Source: Macrostomum lignano (lineage: Eukaryota). Taken from it: a stretch of 64,000 bases of DNA. The DNA is taken from positions 186,001-250,000 of the forward strand of contig NIVC01001066.1 in assembly GCA_002269645.1 (NCBI GenBank). Direction: 5' to 3'. Below the pieces are notes generated by a model. The model did no database searches. It was not told where the DNA came from and was given only the letters and a program-made list of their open reading frames with translations. A program made the position numbers and the translations under genes. Positions 32,690-50,451 of the stretch are shown one piece after another (positions within the stretch are counted from its first letter, which is position 1; the number at the start of each line of letters is the position of its first letter).

Positions 32690-33670
32690 AGCTATCTGGA
32701 GATGCGTGCTATCTGGGGGTGCTTGCTATCTGGGGGAATGCTTGCTATCTTGGGGGTTCTAGCTATCTGGGGGTGCTTGCTATTAGGTGGATGCTTGCTA
32801 TCTGGGGTGCCTGCTATCTTGGAGTGCTTGCTATCTGGAGATGCGTGCTATCTGGGGGTGCTTGCTATCTGGGGGTGCTTGCTATCTGGGGGTGCTTGCT
32901 ATCTGGGGGTGCTTGCTATTAGGTGGATGCTTGCTATCTGGGGTGCCTGCTATCTGGGGGTTCTTGCTATCTGGGGGTGCTTGCTATCTGGGGGTGCTTG
33001 CTATTAGGTGGATGCTTGCTATCTGGGGTGCCTGCTATCTGGGGGTGCTTGCTATCTGGAGATGCTTGCTATCTGGGGGTGCTTGCTATTAGGTGGATGC
33101 TTGCTATCTGGGGTGCCTGCTATCTGGGGGTGCTTGCTATCTAGAGATGCTTGCTATCTGGGGGTGCTTGCTATCTGGGGGTGCTTGCTATTAGGTGGAT
33201 GCTTGCTATTAGGTGGATGCTTGCTATCTGGGGGTGCTTGCTATTAGGTGGATGCTTGCTATCTGGGGGTGCTTGCTATCTGGAGATGCTTGCTATCTGG
33301 GGGTGCTTGCTATCTGGGGGTGCTTGCTATCTAAGGGTGCTTGCTATTAGGTGGATGCTTGCTATCTTGGGGTGCTTGCTATTAGGTGGATGCTTGCTAT
33401 CTGGGGTGCCTGCTATCTGGGGGTGCTTGCTATCTAGAGATGCTTGCTACTTGGGGTGCTTGCTATCTGGGGGTGCTTGCTATCTGGGGGTGCTTGCTAT
33501 CTAAGGGTGCTTGCTATTAGGTGGATGCTTGCTATCTGGGGTGCCTGCTATCTGGGGGTGCTTGCTATCTGGAGATGCTTGCTATCTGGGGATGCTTGCT
33601 ATCTAAGGGTGCTTGCTATTAGGTGGATGCTTGCTATCTGGGGGTGCTTGCTATCTGGGGGGTTGCTTGC
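32690..33670 (+). repeat. 17-bp minisatellite (GCTATCTGGGGGTGCTT)n inside Helitron A; remnants at ~47720-47920 and ~58430-58700
   Basis: Visible units. Confidence 0.93.
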
Positions 33671-34281
33671 TGTCCTGGGATATTTTTTTGCATTGCACTT
33701 CATTTGAGCAGTTTTTCTATTGTCTATGTGAAGGCTTTATTTGGCCGTCTTTTTGATACTTGTAGAGTGCCAGAGATTCTATCTAGATGCCCCCCATCGG
33801 GGGGCGAAGATTGCTAGTATTTATCTAATTGTGATTTGCGGTGCCAGCAGAAAAATTCTAATCCTGGACTCACTGAAAAACCGAGCCGCTGCAATTCGTC
33901 AACTGAAGCCCATAGTTCATCGATGGAAGTAGGTAAACCATTTGTGTCGTATAATTGCACCTACGAGCTACGCTCGTACAATGTGCTGATTAACTTTTTG
34001 CCTGTAAATTTAGGTTGCGATTTCAGGGGCCGGTTTTAACCTGCTCTGTAATCGTGTTTAGCCGACGGGGCCGCCCCCCTCCGCCCGTCTGTGCGTGCGG
34101 CCCGCGCGTGTGCATCCCTGCCGCAAGGTGGGGTGCTGGGTGCCGGCCGGCAGGCGGGGGTGTTGGGTTGGGGGTGGGCGGCGTCGGCCCCCTTTTATTT
34201 GTGCGCTCACGCTCTCTCGTGCGCGCTGCGAGAGCGCTTTGGCTCGTAAAATTTTTTTGCGACTATCTGGCTCTGGCTATC

Positions 34282-35298
34282 ATGCATCGTGTGGACCGAC
34301 TAACAGTCAAACAACTCAAGAGTGAGCTGGGTAGCCGAGGCCTCTCAACCGCAGGCAATAAGTCGGCCTTGCAAGCCAGACTGAGACAACACGAGGGGCA
34401 GTCACAGCTTCAAGACGGCGGGACATCGGCATTGACATCGGCATCGGCATCGCCCTGTGCGCAGGAGGAGCTCCAAGACCAAGGCCGGGACCCACGGGAG
34501 GCGGACCTGGACGGCGAGATTCGGCGGGCGCAGAAACGGCTGCAGCTCCTAGAGCTTCAAACACGCGAACGAGAGCTTCGTGAACGCGCCGTCGTGACTG
34601 CTCGTACAGAATCAGGTGAGCAGCAGAATCTTTTCGCTGAACTTATCAACCCAACAGGCCCCGTCAGCGCTAGAGCCAACCCCCGGCCGGTCGGGCAGCC
34701 GTGTCTACTCGTCAGAGACTTTGTCGATGATCTGTCAGGCCAGGCTGACGAGCTGCTCACCAGGGGCAGCTCTGGCGGCCTCGTGCTCAAGAAGTCGACG
34801 ACCAAGCTGGACGGCATGACAATTGGGCAGTGGTTCGCCGGCAGTATGAAGGTCCTGCTTCAGATACTTGAAGACACAGCGCCGCAGCTGACCAGCAAGG
34901 GCCAAGTGTACAGCACAACTGAGCAAGTCAAAGATTACGCCCAGTACAATGTCCAGGTGGCCGAGCTATTCGACAGATTCCCAGCGCACCGGGTGATCAG
35001 ATTCGACCATGACTACCGCCAGCACCGCGCAGCCAACAGCCTTCGCTGGGGCAAAGACTGCGCCCAGATGTCGATCAGGCACCTGCTCAGCATTAAGACG
35101 GACCAGTACAATCAGACAGCCAAGCGAAACCAGCCTAGCAACAAGAGCCGCGTCATGGGTCCGCGGACATCCTCAGGCCGCGAGCTGTGCTTGTCCTTCA
35201 ACAGCACCAACGGCTGCATGAGGAGCAACTGCCGATTCCTCCATGCCTGCCGAATCTGTGAGGGCAGCCACTCCGAGCAAAATCACGCAAAAAACTGA
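34282..35298 (+). CDS. Ngaro ORF1 (gag-like): N-terminal SAP domain, C-terminal Cys/His finger, 338 aa from first ATG
   Basis: LTVKQLKSELGSRGLSTAGNKSALQARL (SAP); CLSFNSTNGCMRSNCRFLHACRICEGSH. Confidence 0.85.
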   Translation: MHRVDRLTVKQLKSELGSRGLSTAGNKSALQARLRQHEGQSQLQDGGTSALTSASASPCAQEELQDQGRDPREADLDGEIRRAQKRLQLLELQTRERELRERAVVTARTESGEQQNLFAELINPTGPVSARANPRPVGQPCLLVRDFVDDLSGQADELLTRGSSGGLVLKKSTTKLDGMTIGQWFAGSMKVLLQILEDTAPQLTSKGQVYSTTEQVKDYAQYNVQVAELFDRFPAHRVIRFDHDYRQHRAANSLRWGKDCAQMSIRHLLSIKTDQYNQTAKRNQPSNKSRVMGPRTSSGRELCLSFNSTNGCMRSNCRFLHACRICEGSHSEQNHAKN

Positions 35299-35321
35299 GC
35301 AAGCGCGCCGACACGGCGCGC
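35289..35321 (+). promoter_or_regulatory. Candidate -1 programmed ribosomal frameshift signal at the gag/pol junction
   Basis: A_AAA_AAC heptamer in the gag frame just before TGA, 7-nt spacer, 8-bp all-GC hairpin GCGCGCCG-ACA-CGGCGCGC; the -1 frame is the pol frame. Confidence 0.75.
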
Positions 35322-35372
35322 GAAACCGATTTTACCCCTCCTGCTTTTAACTGCCTCGCTCAGCCCGCTCCC

Positions 35373-37934
35373 GTGCCCTGCATCGTCAAGCCTCCAGTGC
35401 GGAAGTCCGATCTGACGCAGCCAGTGGGCGATCTCTGCATCGACGCCTGGCGCTCCGAGCTTGTGGGCGACCCCGACGCTGATTTTATTCTCGACGGCAT
35501 CGAGAGCGGCTTCTCCATTGTCGATGACTTCGACTTTACGCCGTGTCTCTGCAGCAACTACCAGTCCGTCAACCGGAATCGCGACCAAGTCCAAGCTGTT
35601 ATCGGTGAAGAAATCCGGCTCGGGAGGTACGTCCCAGTCGTGGACAAGCCTGCGATGGTCTGTCCGCTGGGAGCCATTCCGAAAGACAGCTCCGGCATCC
35701 GGCTAATCCATGATTGCTCCGTCCCTCGCGGCTGCAGCCTGAACGATCACTATGCCCAACAACGGCGTCTCCGCTTCACCTCCGTCGACGAGGCCGTCAG
35801 GATGATGCAGCCCGGCTGGTTTATGGCAAAGGTGGACATCGCGTCAGCCTACCGCAGCGTGCCAATTTCTCCGCAGTGCTACCAAGCCACCGGCATCCAC
35901 TGGGACTTCGGCAATGGCTGCTCAACCTTCCTGGTGGATACGCGGTTACCATTCGGCAGCAGAGCCTCCGTCAGCATTTTCCATCGCCTCACGCAAGCGG
36001 CCCGGCGAATGATGTGTCGCAAGGGGTTCCTGGCAACCGTCGTTTTCATCGATGACTTCCTCGTCATGGCCAGGACGAAAGCCGAGTGTGACAGGGCCTA
36101 CCACGAGCTGCGCAACCTGCTCACCAGGCTTGGCTTCACCATCAACGAGAAAAAGTCGGTGCCGCCGACGACAAAGCTGCGATTCCTCGGCATTGACATC
36201 GACACCGTTCAAGCCAGTCTTTCCTTCCCAGCCGACAAAGCCGAAAAGCTTCAGCTTCTCCTTGACACCTGCCTCTCGCGGAGGAGCCTGTGCAAGGCGG
36301 AACTGCAGAAGCTGCTCGGGCACCTCAGCCACTTGTGCACTGCCGCCCAGCACGGGCGAACTTTCCTGCGGCCGCTGATCGAGCTGGTCAACAGCCTGGC
36401 GCATCCGTCCGACAGGGTCGGCGTCACGGAGGAGCTCCAGTCGCAGCTGAGGTGGTGGATGACCGCGTTGAGCACGCTGCCGCCTAGAGCTGCCTGGCCC
36501 TCGCGTCGGCCGGCTGGAGCGATTGAGTCTGACGCCTGTGACATTGGAGGCGGTGCTGTGCTGCATTTCGTCGACAGAGAACCGGTTTGGCTCTACATCG
36601 ACTGGCAGTCCGACTGTGATGGCGCGTTCAAGGAGCTGCACATCAACCTCAAGGAGTGCGCCGCCCCGCTGGTTGCGATTCTGCAGCACCAAGAAGCCTT
36701 CAGCGGCTGCTCGGTTGCAGTCTACACTGACAGCACCGCCGCCTGCGGCATCATTAACTCGGGTTCCGCCAAGCACCAAGGTATTGCCGACCTGCAGAAG
36801 CGCGTCGCCCTGACCTGCATTCAACGCGACATCATCGTCCGCGCGCACCATGTGCCTGGCCGCTTCCAGCTGCTCGCAGACCCGCTGTCCAGAGCGCATG
36901 ACCCCAGCCAGCTTGCCAACTTTCTGTTTCGCTTCTATGGCACCTGCTATGTGCCAACCAGCTTGCTTGCCTCCGCTTGCTTGAGCTCTGCCGCTGCCTC
37001 CCACCTTCTGTTTCAGGTCCGCCTCCTGTGGTCCCGGGTCCCGGCCTCTCCGCACCGGCACGTCGACTGCTCAGCCAAGGCTTCGCCAGCTCAACTCGCT
37101 CCGCCTACGCCAGCCAGTGCGCGTCCTGGATGCGATTCTGCGCCGCCCACAGACTTCAACCGCTGTCAGCGCAGCCCGCCGACGTGTGCAACTACCTGGC
37201 GGAGCTGGCGAACAACCGGCTGTTCTCAGTCAGCAGCCTATCCTGCCACCTCGCCGCCGTGTCTTGGCTCTACAAATCAAACAGCGTGGCTGACCCGACG
37301 AGGCAGCCACTGGTTCAGCTTGCCCTGCGCGGCGCCCGCCGGCTCCTCGGCGCCGCCCCAAGGAGCAAACGAGCGTTGCGGCCGGCCGACCTGCAGCGGC
37401 TGCACGGCGTGCTGCGACCTGAAGAGCCCAGGGACTGCGCATTCTGGTGCGCCTGCATCGTGGGCTGGTGGGCCATGCTACGGCGAGCCAACCTGTGCGT
37501 ATCCGGCCGGTTCGATCCGCAGCGAGACCTCAGTGCGAGCTGCATCCGGCCGTCAAGGGCGGGCGTCATCCTCGTCATTCCGAGGTCGAAGACCAACCAG
37601 TTCGGGGCGCGCCAGCACCGAGTTTTCTTGCCGCAGCTCCCAGACGGACATCCACTCTGCCCGGTCACCGCGCTCCAGAAGCAGCTGCGCATTAACCGAC
37701 CGCAGGACGCCCAGCATCACTTGTTCAGTACCCGAACCAGACGGTCCACCGCACCGCTCACCGCGCGCACCTTCGCGAGGCGCCTGTCCGCGGCACTTCG
37801 ACAGGCCGGGTTCGCCGAGCCAGCCAGGTTCTCTGGGCACTCGTTGCGTCGAGGTGGCGCTACATCCGCGGCGGAGGCCGGCATCCCCATCGATTCAATC
37901 ATGCGAGTCGGTGACTGGGCAAGCAGCGCTGTAG
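35373..37934 (+). CDS. Ngaro ORF2: reverse transcriptase + RNase H (no ATG start; frame open back through 35289)
   Basis: RLIHDCS, KVDIASAYR, LPFGSRAS, FIDDFL, FLGIDID; RNase H IESDACDIG, VYTDS, ADPLSR. Confidence 0.93.
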   Translation: MPCIVKPPVRKSDLTQPVGDLCIDAWRSELVGDPDADFILDGIESGFSIVDDFDFTPCLCSNYQSVNRNRDQVQAVIGEEIRLGRYVPVVDKPAMVCPLGAIPKDSSGIRLIHDCSVPRGCSLNDHYAQQRRLRFTSVDEAVRMMQPGWFMAKVDIASAYRSVPISPQCYQATGIHWDFGNGCSTFLVDTRLPFGSRASVSIFHRLTQAARRMMCRKGFLATVVFIDDFLVMARTKAECDRAYHELRNLLTRLGFTINEKKSVPPTTKLRFLGIDIDTVQASLSFPADKAEKLQLLLDTCLSRRSLCKAELQKLLGHLSHLCTAAQHGRTFLRPLIELVNSLAHPSDRVGVTEELQSQLRWWMTALSTLPPRAAWPSRRPAGAIESDACDIGGGAVLHFVDREPVWLYIDWQSDCDGAFKELHINLKECAAPLVAILQHQEAFSGCSVAVYTDSTAACGIINSGSAKHQGIADLQKRVALTCIQRDIIVRAHHVPGRFQLLADPLSRAHDPSQLANFLFRFYGTCYVPTSLLASACLSSAAASHLLFQVRLLWSRVPASPHRHVDCSAKASPAQLAPPTPASARPGCDSAPPTDFNRCQRSPPTCATTWRSWRTTGCSQSAAYPATSPPCLGSTNQTAWLTRRGSHWFSLPCAAPAGSSAPPQGANERCGRPTCSGCTACCDLKSPGTAHSGAPASWAGGPCYGEPTCAYPAGSIRSETSVRAASGRQGRASSSSFRGRRPTSSGRASTEFSCRSSQTDIHSARSPRSRSSCALTDRRTPSITCSVPEPDGPPHRSPRAPSRGACPRHFDRPGSPSQPGSLGTRCVEVALHPRRRPASPSIQSCESVTGQAAL

Positions 37935-38005
37935 AGCGGTACCTACCGCCTTCGGTTGAGCGCGGTGCGCCGCTGCGCCTGGCTTCACTCCTCCCCTCAG
38001 CGTGA
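36977..38005 (+). CDS. Ngaro ORF3: tyrosine recombinase overlapping ORF2
   Basis: AMLRRAN (Arg), SKTNQ (Lys), CPV, FSGHSLRRGGAT (HxxR), VGDWASSAVERY (catalytic Tyr). Confidence 0.93.
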   Translation: MLELCRCLPPSVSGPPPVVPGPGLSAPARRLLSQGFASSTRSAYASQCASWMRFCAAHRLQPLSAQPADVCNYLAELANNRLFSVSSLSCHLAAVSWLYKSNSVADPTRQPLVQLALRGARRLLGAAPRSKRALRPADLQRLHGVLRPEEPRDCAFWCACIVGWWAMLRRANLCVSGRFDPQRDLSASCIRPSRAGVILVIPRSKTNQFGARQHRVFLPQLPDGHPLCPVTALQKQLRINRPQDAQHHLFSTRTRRSTAPLTARTFARRLSAALRQAGFAEPARFSGHSLRRGGATSAAEAGIPIDSIMRVGDWASSAVERYLPPSVERGAPLRLASLLPSA

Positions 38006-38550
38006 CCTCCTCCCTGGTTTGGGATTTTTGGACTCGTTTCGTCCGCTGCCTTTGTCGCCACGCCTGTGCCTTCCCTCTTGCTGCTTTTGGCCCTGTTGGC
38101 TAAGGTTGCGATTTCAGGGGCCGGTTTTAACCTGCTCTGTAATCGTGTTTAGCCGACGGGGCCGCCCCCTCCGCCCGTCTGTGCGTGCGGCCCGCGCGTG
38201 TGCATCCCTGCCGCAAGGTGGGGTGCTGGGTGCCGGCCGGCAGGCGGGGGTGTTGGGTTGGGGGTGGGCGGCGTCGGCCCCCTTTTATTTGTGCGCTCAC
38301 GCTCTCTCGTGCGCGCTGCGAGAGCGCTTTGGCTCGTAAAATTTTTTTTTATTAATTTTCTTGTAATGCTTTTATTCCGTTGCTTCGTGACTTCCCTTTT
38401 AATCGCCTCAAATCCTAAAATATATTCGCTATCGCAGGACTCGTTTCGTCCGCTGCCTTTGTCGCCACGCCTGTGCCTTCCCTCTTGCTGCTTTTGGCCC
38501 TGTTGGCTAACTTGCTATTATAGACCATAAAGCCATGAACGTCCATCCAT

Positions 38551-41322
38551 TCCTCTCTTAATACTAAAGTTGGTGCGTTGTTTGTCTGTTTGTGTGATAC
38601 AAATCTCCTCCTAGACGACTTGCAAGTCAGCGTTGAAACTTATATTGAAAAACTGCAAATTTTCCGAGGATGGCAGTGGGCTATTTCAATTTTTTATTTT
38701 CACGTCTTAAGATCCCTAAAAAAGCAGAAGTAGTAAAACAATAGGGGAATATGAACATCTTGCGTAATTTATAATTATTGCGCCACAACAGCCGGCCTAT
38801 CTGTGCAGTGTATTCTTTCAACTGAAGGGGGTAAGCTGGGCCGGTTGACATCAATTTTTAGCGATTGCGCCACAACTGTGTGCACTGAGAACTTAACCAA
38901 ACCCCCTGTGTTGAGGGTGCTGGGGCGGCAGTGGAATTCAATGAATAAACTTGCAAGCCTTTTTAGCAGGCAGTGCACGTATGCGTACACTCGATAGTTC
39001 AATGCTTTAAATTGGGATATTTCAAACGCCAACTGTTCCTCGAGTTTTGAACTCTGAGAGAAGAGACTTATATTGCTGGAAAGATCTTTCAATGCTGACT
39101 TCGAGGATATAAGTTGTTTGCTTTAAATATGAAAGCAAAAAGCAAAGCAAAAGCAAAGACGATATTTCAATACTTTTAACTCTCTGCAAAGATTGTACTC
39201 ATTTTACGGGTTCAATGGGGGTTCGACCGACACCCCAACAGTTAGGGGGGGGGGTTGAATTTCTAACCTTCACTGCGTATTGGAAGGGGTCGGTCGCTGT
39301 GTATTGGAGGGTTGATTTAGATTGCGCAACTTTTTTCCTAATTTTACCGAGACTGATACTGAATGACTATGAAATTGGTTGCGCATTCAACTGATTCAAT
39401 TGGTTCAATTTTTTTATCGGCGCCTTTCAACACGCTGCTGTGTGTAGCTCTAACCCTAACCCTAACCCTAACCCTAACCATTGAATCCTGGGAGTTTATT
39501 CCCTTTGACGGAGAAAATTTCGATTAAGTCCAGTTTCACGGAGAGAATTTCAATGGTTTTCAGTTTCTTGGAGATGATTTCTGTCTTGCGGAGAGGATTT
39601 CGATGGTTTTCAGTTTCACGGAGAGGATTTCTGTTTCGTGGAGAGAATTTTGATGTATTTCTGTTTTACGGAGACAATTTTGATGGATTTTAGTTTCACG
39701 CAGAGGATTTCCTTGGAGTTCAGTTTCCCGGAGAGGATTTCTGTTTCGTGGAGAGAATTTTGATGTATTTCTGTTTTACGGAGACAATTTTGATGGATTT
39801 TAGTTTCACGCAGAGGATTTCCTTGGAGTTCAGTTTCCCGGAGAGGATTTCTGTTTCGTGAAGAGAATTTTGATGTATTTCTGTTTTACGGAGACAATTT
39901 TGATGGATTTTAGTTTCACGCAGAGGATTTCCTTGGAGTTCAGTTTCCCGGAGAGGATTTCTGTTTCGCGGAGAGGATTTCGATGGTGTTCAGTTTTGCG
40001 GTGAGGAGTTGGATGATGGGATTCAGTTAGTGGATTTCAGGGAATGGAATTCCGGTGATGGGAGTTCTTCCCCTTTCTCCTCCAGCGGAGGAGTTGGCCT
40101 CGTTAATACTAAAAGTGGTGCGATGTTTGTCTGTCTGTATGTTGCAATTTTTCTCCTAGACTACTTGCAACTCAGCGTTGAAACTTATATGGGTAAACTG
40201 CAAATTTTCCGGGTTGGGTTTATAGCTATTTTAATCTTTCATTTTTATATTTTAAGATCCCTAAAAAAGCAGAAATAATAAAACAATAGGGAATATGATC
40301 CACCTTGCGCAACTCTTAGTGATTGCGCCACAACAGCTGGCCTATCTGTGTAGTGTATTCTTTTAGCTAAAGGGGTGTAACTGGGCCAGTTGGCATCAAT
40401 TTTTAGTGATTACGCCACAACTTTCTCCTATCTCGGCAGTGTATTTTCTCTCCAATGGGGGAATGGGGGCATTCTCAGTGGCTGCGTGTGTACAATCGGA
40501 CCCTAGCTCACTGGCTGATTGTATAGACAATTGCGCAACGATATGTTTTCTGATTTTCAATAGGCAGCCCTGTGTATTTGTTGGACACTGTGTATTTGTT
40601 GGACAGTAAAATTCAATGAATAAACTTGCGAGCCTCCCACTGCTGCAGGCAGTGAACGGACACTCGATAGTTCAATTCCTTAAAACGGGAAATTTCAAAG
40701 CCAAACTGTTCCTTGAGTTTTAAACTTTAAGAGAAGAGACTTATATTGCTGGAAAGAGGTTGCAATGCTGAGTTAGGGGATATAAGTTGTTTGCTCTAAA
40801 TGTGAAAATTGAAAGCACAGCATTCAAAAAGTGATTTCCATACTTTTAACTTTTTGCAAAGATTGTACTCCATTTCGGGGGTTCAATGAGGGTTTGACAG
40901 ACTCCCAACAGTGGGGGGTTCAATTTCTAGCTGCACTGCGTATTCGAAGGGGTTCGGTCGCAGTGTATTGGAGGGTTGATTTAGATTGCGCAATTTTTTT
41001 GTTAACTTTAACCGAGGCTGATACTGACTGCCTGAGAAATAAGTTGCGCAATTTAATTGGTTCAATGTTTTAACGGCGCCTTTCAACACGCAGCTGTGTG
41101 TAGCTCTAACCCCTAACCATAACCAATGAATTCTGAGAGCTGGGTTCTGTTTGACGGAGAAATTTCGATTGAGTCCAGTTACACGGAGAGGATTTTCGCG
41201 GAGAGGATTTTGATGGTGTTCAGTTTCACGGAGACAATTTCTGTTTCGCGGAGAGTTCAGGAAATGGGATTCCGGTGATGGGAGTTCTTCCTCTTTCTCC
41301 TCCAGCGGAGGAGTTGGCCTCG
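38551..41322 (+). mobile_element. Two tandem diverged Helitron-like units (D ~38551-40102, E 40103-41322)
   Basis: Both start T..TAATACTAAA(A)GT(T/G)GGTGCG..TGTTTGTCTG and end with hairpin CTCCTCCAGCGGAGGAG + TTGGCCTCG|T; collinear internal similarity; D has 3x110-bp repeats at 39621-39960. Confidence 0.7.
39450..39479 (-). repeat. Interstitial telomeric (TTAGGG)5 inside unit D
   Basis: (CTAACC)5 on the + strand. Confidence 0.9.
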
Positions 41323-41989
41323 TATATACTAAAAATGAAATGCTTGGTTGCTTGCTTGTAATTGATTTTCTCCCGAACGGCTCAACCGATTTTCTTCAAA
41401 CTTGCACCATTCGATCAGAAATTTTTCCGTGACGGTACATGCATCGTGGCTAAGAAATTGCTCAATGTTAAAGGGATTAAATATTCGAAAAACATGCTTT
41501 TTTGCAAAGGTCAAGCAGCTATTTCGACTTGAAACGCACTGTAAAAATGCTAGAGAAAAAACTGACTGGTTGAATTCTGATTCTGAAATAGATTGCATCA
41601 CAATACACTTTATTTATCGTCTGTGTACTGGCTGAATTTGACACTCAATTGAATTGCGTCACAGCTTTGAGTGTGAAAGTATAGTGCAGTACTGAATTTA
41701 TATTACGTAACCATATTGTTAGCTTTCATAGACACTGGTACTGACTTGCCTAAGAAATTGATTATGTCATAACTGCTTCGCGTGACTTTTTACTCTACCT
41801 GACTTGGTGTGAGTGTTGAATTATATAAGTGGTACAAATTCACTGATAACTTCGATGAGAGCTAGCCTAGAGCTGAGCAGACCAGACTGCTAATGCAGCG
41901 ACCTGGGTTCGAATCTAAGTAGTTTAAAAGTAGTAGTGTAAAAATTTTTATTAAAAGCTTTTATTAAAGGACTAAATAAAAACACTTAG

Positions 41990-44900
41990 ATTACTGCACT
42001 CGATAAGCTAAGGATTATTGCTATTAATAAACCAAGGATTACTGCACTCAATAAACCAAGGACTATTGCTCTTGGCAAACCAAGGATTACTGCACTTGAT
42101 TAATCAAGGATTATTGCTATTAATAAACCAAGGATTACTGCACTCGATAAGCCAAGGATTATTGCTATTAATAAACCAAGGATTACTGCACTCAATAAAC
42201 CAAGGACTATTGCTCTTGGCAAACCAAGGATTACTGCACTTGATTAATCAAGGATTATTGCTATTAATAAACCAAGGATTACTGCACTCGATAAGCCAAG
42301 GATTATTGCTATTAATAAACCAAGGATTACTGCACTCAATAAACCAAGGACTATTGCTATTAATAAACCAAGGATTACTGCACTCAATAAACCAAGGACT
42401 ATTGCTCTTGGCAAACCAAGGATTACTGCACTCGATAAGCCAAGGACTATTGCTCTTGGCAAACCAAGGATTACTGCACTCGATAAGCCATGGATTATTG
42501 CTATTAATAAACCAAGGATTACTGCACTCGATAAGCCAAGGATTATTGCTATTAATAAACCAAGGATTACTGCACTCGATAAGCCAAGGATTATTGCTAT
42601 TAATAAACCAAGGATTATGCACTTGGCAAACCAAGGATTACTGCACTCGATAAGCCAAGGATTATTGCTATTAATAAACCAAGGATTACTGCACTCAATA
42701 AACCAAGGACTATTGCTCTTGGCAAACCAAGGATTACTGCACTTGATTAATCAAGGATTATTGCTATTAATAAACCAAGGATTACTGCACTCGATAAGCC
42801 AAGGATTATTGCTATTAATAAACCAAGGATTACTGCACTCAATAAACCAAGGACTATTGCTATTAATAAACCAAGGATTACTGCACTCAATAAACCAAGG
42901 ACTATTGCTCTTGGCAAACCAAGGATTACTGCACTCGATAAGCCAAGGACTATTGCTCTTGGCAAACCAAGGATTACTGCACTCGATAAGCCATGGATTA
43001 TTGCTATTAATAAACCAAGGATTACTGCACTCGATAAGCCAAGGATTATTGCTATTAATAAACCAAGGATTACTGCACTCGATAAGCCAAGGATTATTGC
43101 TATTAATAAACCAAGGATTATGCACTTGGCAAACCAAGGATTACTGCACTCGATAAGCCAAGGATTATTGCTATTAATAAACCAAGGATTACTGCACTCA
43201 ATAAACCAAGGACTATTGCTCTTGGCAAACCAAGGATTACTGCACTTGATTAATCAAGGATTATTGCTATTAATAAACCAAGGATTACTGCACTCGATAA
43301 GCCAAGGATTATTGCTATTAATAAACCAAGGATTACTGCACTCAATAAACCAAGGACTATTGCTCTTGGCAAACCAAGGATTACTGCACTTGATTAATCA
43401 AGGATTATTGCTATTAATAAACCAAGGATTACTGCACTCGATAAGCCAAGGATTATTGCTATTAATAAACCAAGGATTACTGCACTCAATAAACCAAGGA
43501 CTATTGCTATTAATAAACCAAGGATTACTGCACTCAATAAACCAAGGACTATTGCTCTTGGCAAACCAAGGATTACTGCACTCGATAAGCCAAGGACTAT
43601 TGCTCTTGGCAAACCAAGGATTACTGCACTCGATAAGCCAAGGATTATTGCTATTAATAAACCAAGGATTACTGCACTCGATAAGCCAAGGATTATTGCT
43701 ATTAATAAACCAAGGATTACTGCACTCGATAAGCCAAGGATTATTGCTATTAATAAACCAAGGATTATGCACTTGGCGAACCAAGGATTACTGCACTCGA
43801 TAAGCCAAGGATTATTGCTATTAATAAACCAAGGATTACTGCACTCAATAAACCAAGGATTATTGCTATTAATAAACCAAGGATTACTGCACTCGATAAG
43901 CCAAGGATTATTGCTATTAATAAACCAAGGATTACTGCACTCAATAAACCAAGGACTATTGCTATTAATAAACCAAGGATTACTGCACTCAATAAACCAA
44001 GGACTATTGCTCTTGGCAAACCAAGGATTACTGCACTCGATAAGCCAAGGACTATTGCTCTTGGCAAACCAAGGATTACTGCACTCGATAAGCCATGGAT
44101 TATTGCTATTAATAAACCAAGGATTACTGCACTCGATAAGCCAAGGATTATTGCTATTAATAAACCAAGGATTACTGCACTCGATAAGCCAAGGATTATT
44201 GCTATTAATAAACCAAGGATTATGCACTTGGCAAACCAAGGATTACTGCACTCGATAAGCCAAGGATTATTGCTATTAATAAACCAAGGATTACTGCACT
44301 CAATAAACCAAGGACTATTGCTCTTGGCAAACCAAGGATTACTGCACTTGATAATCAAGGATTATTGCTATTAATAAACCAAGGATTACTGCACTCGATA
44401 AGCCAAGGATTATTGCTATTAATAAACCAAGGATTACTGCACTCAATAAACCAAGGACTATTGCTCTTGGCAAACCAAGGATTACTGCACTTGATTAATC
44501 AAGGATTATTGCTATTAATAAACCAAGGATTACTGCACTCGATAAGCCAAGGATTATTGCTATTAATAAACCAAGGATTACTGCACTCAATAAACCAAGG
44601 ACTATTGCTATTAATAAACCAAGGATTACTGCACTCAATAAACCAAGGACTATTGCTCTTGGCAAACCAAGGATTACTGCACTCGATAAGCCAAGGACTA
44701 TTGCTCTTGGCAAACCAAGGATTACTGCACTCGATAAGCCATGGATTATTGCTATTAATAAACCAAGGATTACTGCACTCGATAAGCCAAGGATTATTGC
44801 TATTAATAAACCAAGGATTACTGCACTCGATAAGCCAAGGATTATTGCTATTAATAAACCAAGGATTATGCACTTGGCAAACCAAGGATTACTGCACTCG

Positions 44901-47690
44901 ATAAGCCAAGGATTATTGCTATCAATAAACCAAGGATTACTGCACTCAATAAACCAAGGACTATTGCTCTTGGCAAACCAAGGATTACTGCACTTGATTA
45001 ATCAAGGATTATTGCTATTAATAAACCAAGGATTACTGCACTCGATAAGCCAAGGATTATTGCTATTAATAAACCAAGGATTACTGCACTCAATAAACCA
45101 AGGACTATTGCTCTTGGCAAACCAAGGATTACTGCACTTGATTAATCAAGGATTATTGCTATTAATAAACCAAGGATTACTGCACTCGATAAGCCAAGGA
45201 TTATTGCTATTAATAAACCAAGGATTACTGCACTCAATAAACCAAGGACTATTGCTATTAATAAACCAAGGATTACTGCACTCAATAAACCAAGGACTAT
45301 TGCTCTTGGCAAACCAAGGATTACTGCACTCGATAAGCCAAGGACTATTGCTCTTGGCAAACCAAGGATTACTGCACTCGATAAGCCATGGATTATTGCT
45401 ATTAATAAACCAAGGATTACTGCACTCGATAAGCCAAGGATTATTGCTATTAATAAACCAAGGATTACTGCACTCGATAAGCCAAGGATTATTGCTATTA
45501 ATAAACCAAGGATTATGCACTTGGCAAACCAAGGATTACTGCACTCGATAAGCCAAGGATTATTGCTATCAATAAACCAAGGATTACTGCACTCAATAAA
45601 CCAAGGACTATTGCTCTTGGCAAACCAAGGATTACTGCACTTGATTAATCAAGGATTATTGCTATTAATAAACCAAGGATTACTGCACTCGATAAGCCAA
45701 GGATTATTGCTATTAATAAACCAAGGATTACTGCACTCAATAAACCAAGGACTATTGCTCTTGGCAAACCAAGGATTACTGCACTTGATTAATCAAGGAT
45801 TATTGCTATTAATAAACCAAGGATTACTGCACTCGATAAGCCAAGGATTATTGCTATTAATAAACCAAGGATTACTGCACTCAATAAACCAAGGACTATT
45901 GCTATTAATAAACCAAGGATTACTGCACTCAATAAACCAAGGACTATTGCTCTTGGCAAACCAAGGATTACTGCACTCGATAAGCCAAGGACTATTGCTC
46001 TTGGCAAACCAAGGATTACTGCACTCGATAAGCCAAGGATTATTGCTATTAATAAACCAAGGATTACTGCACTCGATAAGCCAAGGATTATTGCTATTAA
46101 TAAACCAAGGATTACTGCACTCGATAAGCCAAGGATTATTGCTATTAATAAACCAAGGATTATGCACTTGGCAAACCAAGGATTACTGCACTCGATAAGC
46201 CAAGGATTATTGCTATTAATAAACCAAGGATTACTGCACTCAATAAACCAAGGACTATTGCTCTTGGCAAACCAAGGATTACTGCACTTGATTAATCAAG
46301 GATTATTGCTATTAATAAACCAAGGATTACTGCACTCGATAAGCCAAGGATTATTGCTATTAATAAACCAAGGATTACTGCACTCAATAAACCAAGGACT
46401 ATTGCTCTTGGCAAACCAAGGATTACTGCACTTGATTAATCAAGGATTATTGCTATTAATAAACCAAGGATTACTGCACTCGATAAGCCAAGGATTATTG
46501 CTATTAATAAACCAAGGTTTACTGCAATCAATAAACCAAGGACTATTGCTATTAATAAACCAAGGATTACTGCACTCAATAAACCAAGGACTATTGCTCT
46601 TGGCAAACCAAGGATTACTGCACTCGATAAGCCAAGGACTATTGCTCTTGGCAAACCAAGGATTACTGCACTCGATAAGCCATGGATTATTGCTATTAAT
46701 AAACCAAGGATTACTGCACTCGATAAGCCAAGGATTATTGCTATTAATAAACCAAGGATTACTGCACTCGATAAGCCAAGGATTATTGCTATTAATAAAC
46801 CAAGGATTATGCACTTGGCAAACCAAGGATTACTGCACTCGATAAGCCAAGGATTATTGCTATTAATAAACCAAGGATTACTGCACTCAATAAACCAAGG
46901 ACTATTGCTCTTGGCAAACCAAGGATTACTGCACTCGATAAGCCAAGGACTATTGCTCTTGGCAAACCAAGGATTACTGCACTCGATAAGCCATGGATTA
47001 TTGCTATTAATAAACCAAGGATTACTGCACTCGATAAGCCAAGGATTATTGCTATTAATAAACCAAGGATTACTGCACTCGATAAGCCAAGGATTATTGC
47101 TATTAATAAACCAAGGATTATGCACTTGGCAAACCAAGGATTACTGCACTCGATAAGCCAAGGATTATTGCTATTAATAAACCAAGGATTACTGCACTCA
47201 ATAAACCAAGGACTATTGCTCTTGGCAAACCAAGGATTACTGCACTTGATTAATCAAGGATTATTGCTATTAATAAACCAAGGATTACTGCACTCGATAA
47301 GCCAAGGATTATTGCTATTAATAAACCAAGGATTACTGCACTTGATTAATCAAGGATTATTGCTATTAATAAACCAAGGATTACTGCACTCGATAAGCAT
47401 GGATTATTGCTATTAATAAACCAAGGATTACTGCACTCGATAAGCCAAGGATTATTGCTATTAATAAACCAAGGATTACTGCACTCGATAAGCCAAGGAT
47501 TATTGCTATTAATAAACCAAGGATTACTGCACTCATAAGCCATGGATTATTGCTATTAATAAACCAAGGATTACTTACTGCACTTGGCAAACCAAGAATT
47601 ACTGCACTCGATAAGCCATGGATTATTGCTATTAATAAACCAAGGATTACTGCACTCGATAGCCAAGGATTACTGCGCTTGATAAGCTTG
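41990..47690 (+). repeat. 24-bp satellite (ATAAACCAAGGATTACTGCACTCG and variants) with a 647-bp higher-order repeat
   Basis: A 23-bp deletion monomer (GGATTATGCACTTGG) recurs at spacings of 503, 647, ~454, 647, 647, 647, 647 and 311; 647 = 27x24-1. Confidence 0.95.
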
Positions 47691-49417: not shown

Positions 49418-49463
49418 TTAGGGTTAGGGTTAGGGTTAGGGTTAGGGTTAGGGTTAGGGTTAG
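49418..49463 (+). repeat. Interstitial telomeric (TTAGGG)7 inside unit B
   Basis: Seven perfect units plus TTAG. Confidence 0.92.
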
Positions 49464-50451
49464 AAAGTAGACAGATTTTTTAAGATTTCAAGGCTTATGG
49501 GAGCATCGCTGAGATGTCAAGGGGGGAGTTGATATGTTAAGGCTTGTGGGGGGGGATTGCTGACATGTCAAGGCTTACACGGGTACTGGTAGCGTACTGA
49601 AGCATACTGGTAGAAGTAGCTCTGAAAGAAGGCAAGTATGGTTGAATTTCAATGTCTGTTATAAAATTCTGCACAAACATGTTTTATTGGTACATAAGCC
49701 TGGAATTAAAATGAGAATTCGATTCCTAGCCCCCCTCCCTAAGAATTTTTTTTCATTTTAAAGGATTCGTCCCTTGCTTATTGGCCACCCCGAAGGGGGG
49801 CGCTAGTCCATATACTAAAAATGGTCTGTTTGTGTGTGCGTGTGTGTGTGATCGATTTTAGCAAAAACGGCTGAACCGATTTTCTTCGAACCTGCACTGT
49901 TCGATCAGAAATTATTCCGTGACGGTACATGCATCGTGGCTAAGAAATTGCTCGATGCTAAAGGGATTAAATATTCGAAAAACATGCTTTTTTGCAAAGG
50001 TCAAGCATCGAAATGCATTGTAAGAATGCTAGCAGAAAAACTGACTGGTTGAATTCTGATTCTGAAATAGATTGCATCACAATACACTTTATTTATCGTC
50101 TGTGTACTGGCTGAATTTGACACTCAATTGAATTGCGTCACAGCTTTGAGTGTGAAAGCATAGCGCAGTACTGAATTTATATTACGTAACCATATTGTAA
50201 ACTTTCATAGACACTGGTACTGACTTGCCTAAGAAATTGATTATGTCATAACTGCTTCGTGAGACTTTTTACTCTACCTGACTTGGTGTGAGTGTTGAAT
50301 TATATAAGTGGTACAACATCACTGATAACTTCGATGAGAGCTAGCCTAGAGCTAAACAGACCAGACTGCTAATGCAGCGACCTAGGTTCGAATCTAAGTA
50401 GTTTAAAATTTTTTATTAAAAGGTTTTATTAAAGGACTAAATAAAAACACT

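Follow-up and report, generated by a model that had tools for sequence, protein, structure and literature searches.

The gag-pol junction of a Ngaro-type tyrosine-recombinase retrotransposon in Macrostomum lignano carries a conserved slippery heptamer, A_AAA_AAC, that most probably yields Gag-Pol by −1 frameshifting, with a separate Gag-recombinase predicted to come from a spliced RNA. More generally, comparison of related junctions makes it very likely that Ngaro-type elements produce Gag-Pol by recoding. Expression of the two start-less downstream ORFs of tyrosine-recombinase retrotransposons has so far been guesswork, and we give exact sites for both. All coordinates below refer to the window, the whole 64,000-nucleotide stretch of DNA that was analysed, in which the element has the following features:

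34012-38509, + strand: complete Ngaro-type tyrosine-recombinase retrotransposon (empty-site joint, repeats, domains)
34012-34258, + strand: split direct repeat A1, matching A2 except for one indel
34282-35298, + strand: gag-like ORF of 338 aa (ORF call, Pfam, alignment)
34616-37016, + strand: GT..AG intron of 2401 nt, phase 1 at both ends (joint seen in the RNA-like runs X1 and X2)
35289-35295, + strand: slippery heptamer A_AAA_AAC in the gag frame (sequence; kept in close loci and in families)
35295-37934, + strand: pol in the −1 frame, with RT (FIDD at 36045), RNase H and a tail (ORF, Pfam)
35296-35302, + strand: gag stop TGA (35296-35298) and spacer, 7 nt in all, TGAGCAA (sequence)
35303-35321, + strand: 8-bp GC hairpin, candidate 3′ stimulator (folding)
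35329-35348, + strand: two TTTTA motifs directly 3′ of the hairpin (motif counts)
35403-35405, + strand: pol codon 37, AAG here; 12 sister copies have ATG, in the weak context CGG ATG T
37017-38005, + strand: tyrosine recombinase (YR) exon, with HSLRRG at 37838 and ERYL at 37934 (PF00589, PF13495, PF02899)
38030-38103, + strand: repeat B1, 74/74 identical to B2
38103-38348, + strand: repeat A2 (repeat comparison)
38437-38510, + strand: repeat B2, with 88 nt separating it from A2

The gag ORF encodes a SAP domain (PF02037, E 1.6e-12), a segment judged by eye to be coiled-coil-like and a C-terminal Cys/His motif, and it ends in K-N-stop. The tyrosine recombinase ORF lies downstream of RT/RNase H on the same strand, and the split direct repeats run A1-ORFs-B1-A2-B2. 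The Ngaro superfamily of the DIRS order is described, in the available portions of four sources (PMC3783388, PMC8547959, PMC4157794, PMC9210276), by the order gag, RT/RNase H, YR, by A-ORFs-B-A-B repeats and by the absence of a methyltransferase. The window element shares all of these on one strand, and differs from known Ngaro elements in its 88-nt A2-B2 spacer and in having no hydrolase ORF. In the pol tail after RNase H we found no Pfam match to a methyltransferase at E≤10, a search that a very diverged methyltransferase could escape; relevant to the same question, in several families the end of pol and the YR start lie no more than 180 nt apart. Two other classes were considered and rejected: PAT-like and DIRS1-like, both for want of a methyltransferase and the latter also for want of inverted terminal repeats with an ICR. 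The earlier note on this DNA had called the element a Ngaro/DIRS-order retrotransposon, and ORF order, repeats and domains agree with that identity; we class it as Ngaro, not PAT-like or DIRS1-like, from structure alone, which can mislead in such classification (PMC4157794, in the part available). The pol tail, which has no Pfam hit, overlaps the YR ORF. The shared stretch here is about 900 nt (37017-37934), and in three other families the pol frame likewise remains open for 727-1004 nt; in others it closes within 180 nt.

Thirteen copies in the genome, the window copy included, are 97-100% identical over the junction, and the element is therefore young. Further copies at 70-79% identity form two subfamilies (33 matches and 30 loci in the genome). 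Two close copies, L006 and L007, have an internal pol deletion in common, and L013 with L023 represents one copy split near the gag end by an insertion of about 4.6 kb.

The gag frame ends ...CAC GCA AAA AAC TGA (region 35280-35330), and all coordinates that the earlier note had given for this end and its heptamer hold. This A_AAA_AAC is the sole canonical X_XXY_YYZ within the coding part of the element; MMTV gag-pro uses the same heptamer. The note had also described a 7-nt spacer followed by a perfect 8-bp GC hairpin, and both sequence and folding agree. The stem is GCGCGCCG/CGGCGCGC with the loop ACA, has a folding energy of −15.3 kcal/mol and pair probabilities of 0.88-1.0 when folded with 400 nt of context, and is the most stable 25-nt window across the 4.5-kb element. 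Over the 70 nt 3′ of the heptamer, 5 of 200 shuffles were equally stable (z −2.5). The −1 frame is the RT frame and is open across the slip site, again as had been claimed: its ORF (35262-37934) encodes RVT_1 and RNase H and is already open 11 codons ahead of the gag stop. The junction thus combines what is found at canonical −1 sites, namely an X_XXY_YYZ in the frame of the upstream ORF, an open −1 frame, and a 3′ structure at 5-9 nt (here a 7-nt spacer and an 8-bp stem).

Across the close copies, A AAA AAC is kept at 25 of 26 assessable loci, with 4 of the 30 loci not assessable; the exception is L017, which has A AAA GAC. An RT search of the same genome gave 544 candidates, from which we scored 150 and took 80 stretches. 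The first 60 of these, with the window, fall into 16 families whose RTs are 31-59% identical; 15 of them could be assessed and one has lost its junction. Gag ends xCA AAA AAY in 14 of the 15 assessable families (AAC in 13, AAT in 1), with the stop directly after the heptamer in 13 of these 14, and pol is in −1 in 13 of the 14 representatives. The representative of F14, a single copy, has pol in +1, probably through an indel. Several individual copies are likewise out of frame through indels while their sister copies are −1.

The synonymous positions of the heptamer are as constant as its residues. In all 14 heptamer families the Ala, Ser, Thr or Pro codon has A as its third base and Lys is AAA, an outcome with a chance of about 10^-18.5 given gag codon usage and families taken as independent. 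Four-fold sites between families are saturated (1216 of 3598 identical, 33.8% versus 29.3% expected), and among invariant RT residues only Trp retains a single codon across families. The heptamer is under selection, synonymous positions included. One family, F15 (L117, L118, L121-L126), has no heptamer and no ATG ahead of RT: in 8/8 copies gag and pol share one frame, interrupted by a single TGA followed by C, which makes this junction a candidate for readthrough. Its sister family F14 has A_AAA_AAC. Family F8 (L086, L088, L090, L094, L095) has a variable stretch of 635-815 nt with 36-nt repeats between the gag stop and RT, and no YR match in the 7 kb examined.

We extended the comparison to metagenome contigs, in which an RT profile found 124 relatives; 80 were kept, 71 of them with a gag end, and these form 54 clusters at 80% RT identity. 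Here GGA, GGT or GTT was also accepted as the first triplet of a heptamer. Pol is in −1 with a heptamer in 25 clusters, in frame behind one stop in 21, in +1 in 5, and in −1 without a canonical heptamer in 3. A heptamer lies within the last 60 nt of gag at 30 of 40 −1 loci versus 1 of 24 in-frame loci (Fisher p 1e-8), against a background of 76 in 1005 control windows. The signal sought in related elements is thus present both in families of the same genome and in metagenome relatives, and the comparison strongly supports the −1 frameshift reading of the junction that the note had put forward. A rival account is that the heptamer serves as a required Lys-Asn C-terminus of Gag, or is there by chance, with no part in recoding; K337 is invariant and N338 nearly so in the Gag alignment. 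This account meets the fixed synonymous positions, the in-frame families that have no heptamer, and the metagenome heptamers themselves, which vary (AAAAAAC, GGGAAAC, GGGTTTT, TTTAAAC, GGAAAAC, GGATTTT), encode other residues and are often internal rather than terminal. Since the heptamer varies among relatives, it is not a protein constraint, and we hold this account to be extremely unlikely. Three of the metagenome heptamers rank among the shiftiest known, according to the available text of PMC5009743.

Relatives without a −1 pol carry other recoding motifs at the same place. Of 22 in-frame representatives, 16 have the stop in the context UAG-G (11) or UGA-C (5), whereas 3 of 25 −1 representatives do (p 3e-5). 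UAG-G and UGA-C(GG) are known readthrough contexts, used by gammaretroviruses and in type II readthrough, respectively (PMC3542737, in part), and the motifs recur at the junction of heptamer-less relatives. All five +1 clusters (L149, L163, L183, L172, L202) have TTT CGT in the gag frame within the last 30 gag codons, versus 0 of the 49 others. UUU_CGU is the core of the +1 shift site of influenza PA-X and is shared by amalgaviruses (PMC5009743, in the sections available), so these five junctions are candidates for PA-X-type +1 frameshifting, a mode other than that of the window element. Both likenesses, to readthrough and to PA-X, are likenesses of sequence. An ATG ahead of RT is missing at 24 of 30 frameshift-class loci and 21 of 24 in-frame loci. 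Because the junction nearly always has a recoding motif, whatever the frame, a Gag-Pol fusion as the functional product is the best explanation. In a quick tree (68 of 69 rows, those that passed a length filter of 170 aa), at least 6-7 changes between the −1 and in-frame states are needed to account for the well-supported branches, and their direction is not readable from it. Ngaro-type elements would offer a natural set for work on the evolution of recoding signals, since one and the same junction shows three recoding modes taking each other's place. At nine loci with pol in −1 and no canonical heptamer (L187, L204, L207, L209, L212, L216-L218, L220), a conserved C CCC CAA stands one codon ahead of the gag stop, possibly a non-canonical slip site. 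A search with the Gag protein gave 2012 candidates, none at E≤0.001, an uninformative result.

The recombinase ORF has no ATG ahead of its N-terminal SAM-like domain, and the pol/YR overlap contains no canonical heptamer for a frameshift into YR. A donor at 34615/16 (CAG|GTGAGC) and an acceptor at 37016/17 (TTTCAG|G), both phase 1, were predicted from sequence before contigs were compared, and the joint 34615->37017 was then found in contigs of X1 and X2, which come from two studies, with 24 letters on the short side. We tentatively take X1 and X2 to be RNA from the GT..AG joint and from gaps in their cover of flank or spacer. The joint is lacking in the other six of eight runs (X5, X8, X14, X15, X17, X18), each examined as contigs, from which rare isoforms are dropped; X17 and X18 look like DNA, and the contigs of X14 are fragmentary. 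An intron-less genomic copy was rejected as the source of the joint: at least 13 of 13 close copies run through the donor, and none is intron-less. With the intron go the last two-thirds of gag, the frameshift site and the portion of pol for RT/RNase H, and the spliced RNA would encode, in frame, a fusion of Gag residues 1-111 to 328 aa of recombinase. The splice signals recur in relatives. Almost every family examined has a pyrimidine-rich CAG|G acceptor in phase 1 ahead of YR, and phase 1 is also where the best YR acceptor falls in all 37 metagenome clusters that offer one; 7 clusters offer none. For the 5′ gag donor, the best candidate is in phase 1 in all 12 families assessed in this genome and in 36 of 40 clusters, versus 15 of 40 in a control region.

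The earlier note had stated that no ATG precedes the RT motifs in the pol frame. This is so in the window copy, where the first ATG (35655) is inside RT, but fails in 12 of the 13 near-identical copies, which have ATG at codon 37. Seven of eight sequencing runs have T at 35404, the eighth having no cover there; the missing ATG is a quirk of the window copy. Given the ATG in the 12 other close copies, an independent Pol start is possible in that subfamily. Pol could then be a separate protein begun at codon 37, either by ribosomes that reinitiate once past the gag stop or on a subgenomic or trans-spliced RNA, and since this ATG, the dominant allele of seven runs, stands just ahead of the conserved RT N-terminus, 36 codons past the slip site, the protein would be complete. 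However, at this codon the two diverged subfamilies have ATC (12 loci) or ACC (2 loci) and the window has AAG, the ATG context is weak, and most relatives have no ATG. On the other side, 7 of the 14 representatives of families do have some ATG between the heptamer and RT codon 15. Once a long ORF has been translated, reinitiation is a rare event that depends on special signals (PMC3542737, in the part available), there is no loose contig end at 35300-35400 among the matches listed, and selection on the heptamer would be left unexplained. We consider such a separate Pol very improbable.

A spliced RNA that supplies pol, which the note had named as a finding that would count against frameshifting, did not appear: contigs of the eight runs contain no splice joint into pol, and we found no conserved splice acceptor into pol in the element's own families or in the metagenome clusters. 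Contigs cross the gag-pol junction unbroken in seven of the eight runs, the eighth having a gap there. Since the element does splice, it is conceivable that the same gag donor (34615) is also joined to an acceptor close to where pol begins, and that Gag-Pol or Pol comes from this second splice. TTTTAAC...CAG at 35344-35363 resembles a branch point and acceptor, and in 6 of 15 families the best candidate is a phase-1 AG, though a weak one. Yet the candidate acceptor in the window is phase 0 for pol and the donor phase 1, which puts the product out of frame; candidates elsewhere are weak and share no common position, and 18 of 25 frameshift-class clusters have none; and the joint is missing from all eight runs. 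We think it highly improbable that pol is reached in this way, and frameshifting at the heptamer remains the reading that we prefer.

What stimulates the predicted frameshift is a separate matter. The note had proposed conservation and covariation of heptamer and stem as a check, and the two halves of it came out differently: the heptamer is kept, and the stem shows no covariation, with 0 double changes in 11 distinct rows from three close subfamilies and 147 of 500 shuffles pairing equally well. The outer six pairs are mostly kept across the three subfamilies and the loop varies. In the 14 heptamer families the structure 3′ of the site is in the top 10% of its own element in 7, intermediate in 1 and among the weakest windows in 6. 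An H-type pseudoknot was dropped by inspection, the loop being 3 nt with no complement nearby. By these comparisons the hairpin does not appear to be a conserved part of the signal.

Frameshifting could therefore be real and the hairpin incidental, the stimulator being instead the adjacent stop, the TTTTA-rich tract, a long-range structure or a protein, all of which is compatible with our main reading. This would fit the missing covariation, the 6 of 14 heptamer families that are unstructured 3′ of the site, the stop directly after the heptamer in 13 of the 14, and the occurrence of TTTTA within 100 nt after the gag stop in 12 of 15 families versus 19 of 315 background windows. It fits less well with the 7 of 14 families in which a 3′ structure, built from unrelated sequences, ranks in the top 10% of the element, or with outer pairs largely kept in three subfamilies despite loop change, and among metagenome clusters TTTTA is only slightly in excess (12 of 54 versus 72 of 660). 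An incidental hairpin is thus a possibility that we regard as the less likely one; the hairpin probably does contribute to frameshifting here. The TTTTA motifs, in the window (35329-35348) and in 11 other families, mostly read xxT TTT Axx in the pol frame.

Together these data fit a scheme in which, on the unspliced RNA, most ribosomes would stop at the TGA at 35296 and release the 338-aa Gag. In a minority, a pause with AAA AAC occupied by tRNA-Lys and tRNA-Asn would be promoted by the hairpin, 7 nt further on, and possibly by the stop next to the heptamer; a tandem slip of one base backward on A AAA AAC would then carry these ribosomes through ...HAKN-LSKRAD... into pol. The resulting Gag-Pol (RT/RNase H) fusion would be 1217 aa in the window copy, with the expected transframe junction peptide QNHAKNLSKRAD, within which trypsin would cut at the junction. 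The earlier note had predicted the transframe peptide ...HAKKLSKR; under the established tandem-slippage model the main product should instead be HAKNLSKR, and HAKK-LSKR would arise only if the slip comes ahead of Asn decoding. On the spliced RNA (34615 joined to 37017) the slip site is gone, and the first 111 aa of Gag, with the SAP and coiled-coil segments, would be fused to 328 aa of recombinase. Retroviruses use their transcript in a comparable manner, unspliced for Gag and Gag-Pol and as a spliced subgenomic mRNA for the downstream gene; the splice in the window element differs in keeping 111 gag codons in frame with the integrating enzyme, not env.

The −1 mechanism at this site is textbook, and the group seems poorly documented for it. 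In common with −1 frameshifting at retroviral and LTR-element gag-pol or gag-pro junctions, the window element has a heptamer in the gag frame, a spacer of 5-9 nt, a 3′ structure and the polymerase in −1 (PMC5009743); a survey cited there puts pol in −1 in 28 of 51 animal LTR elements, and the available text of this review contains no mention that we could find of 'DIRS' or 'Ngaro'. The element differs in its simple hairpin with a 3-nt loop and no pseudoknot, in the stop directly after the heptamer, in a pol without protease or DDE integrase, and in that about half of its sister families have no local structure. Available portions of eleven works on such elements (PMC8547959, PMC3783388, PMC6681497, PMC3266345, PMC9210276, PMC12440569, PMC7192593, PMC9341512, PMC4157794, PMC12477816, bioRxiv 2022.06.16.496473) describe, as far as we found, neither a slip site nor readthrough at the gag-pol junction of Ngaro/DIRS elements, nor a splice from gag to YR. 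The suggestion that Gag-Pol frameshifting might be undescribed in this group goes no further than these portions, and it needs amending: programmed frameshifts had already been put forward for Ngaro elements, for the YR ORF if not more widely, by Poulter and Butler 2015 as quoted in the accessible part of PMC13003380. Earlier works (Poulter and Butler 2015; Goodwin and Poulter 2004) may well propose a gag-pol frameshift too. The splice joint 34615->37017 contradicts the suggestion, made in review, that the recombinase is reached through frameshifting, and the splice reading would correct it. ORF1 has been reported to affect Ngaro target choice (PMC8547959, in part), for which a recombinase carrying the Gag SAP domain may offer an explanation.

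On balance we lean towards a joint and wider claim: that Ngaro-type elements run a retrovirus-like programme of three products (Gag by termination, Gag-Pol by recoding, and Gag(SAP)-recombinase by a conserved phase-1 splice), that the junction has switched repeatedly among −1, readthrough and PA-X-type +1, and that some families shift at A_AAA_AAC without local structure. Families of this last kind would point to an undescribed stimulator.

The insertion itself is delimited by an empty-site joint, 34011->38510 (1 letter ambiguous), in runs X8, X17 and X18. Given an empty allele in three runs, the insertion is polymorphic or its flank is repeated. The site (33700-34011 and 38510-39400) lies in high-copy repeat DNA with deep cover in DNA-like runs. 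Tandem repeat arrays flank the element at 33000-33660, 39500-40000 and about 41850-47000, the largest with a 24-nt unit in more than 200 copies, and short telomere-type (TTAGGG)n tracts, inverted and about 10 kb apart, occur at 39445-39479 and 49418-49464.
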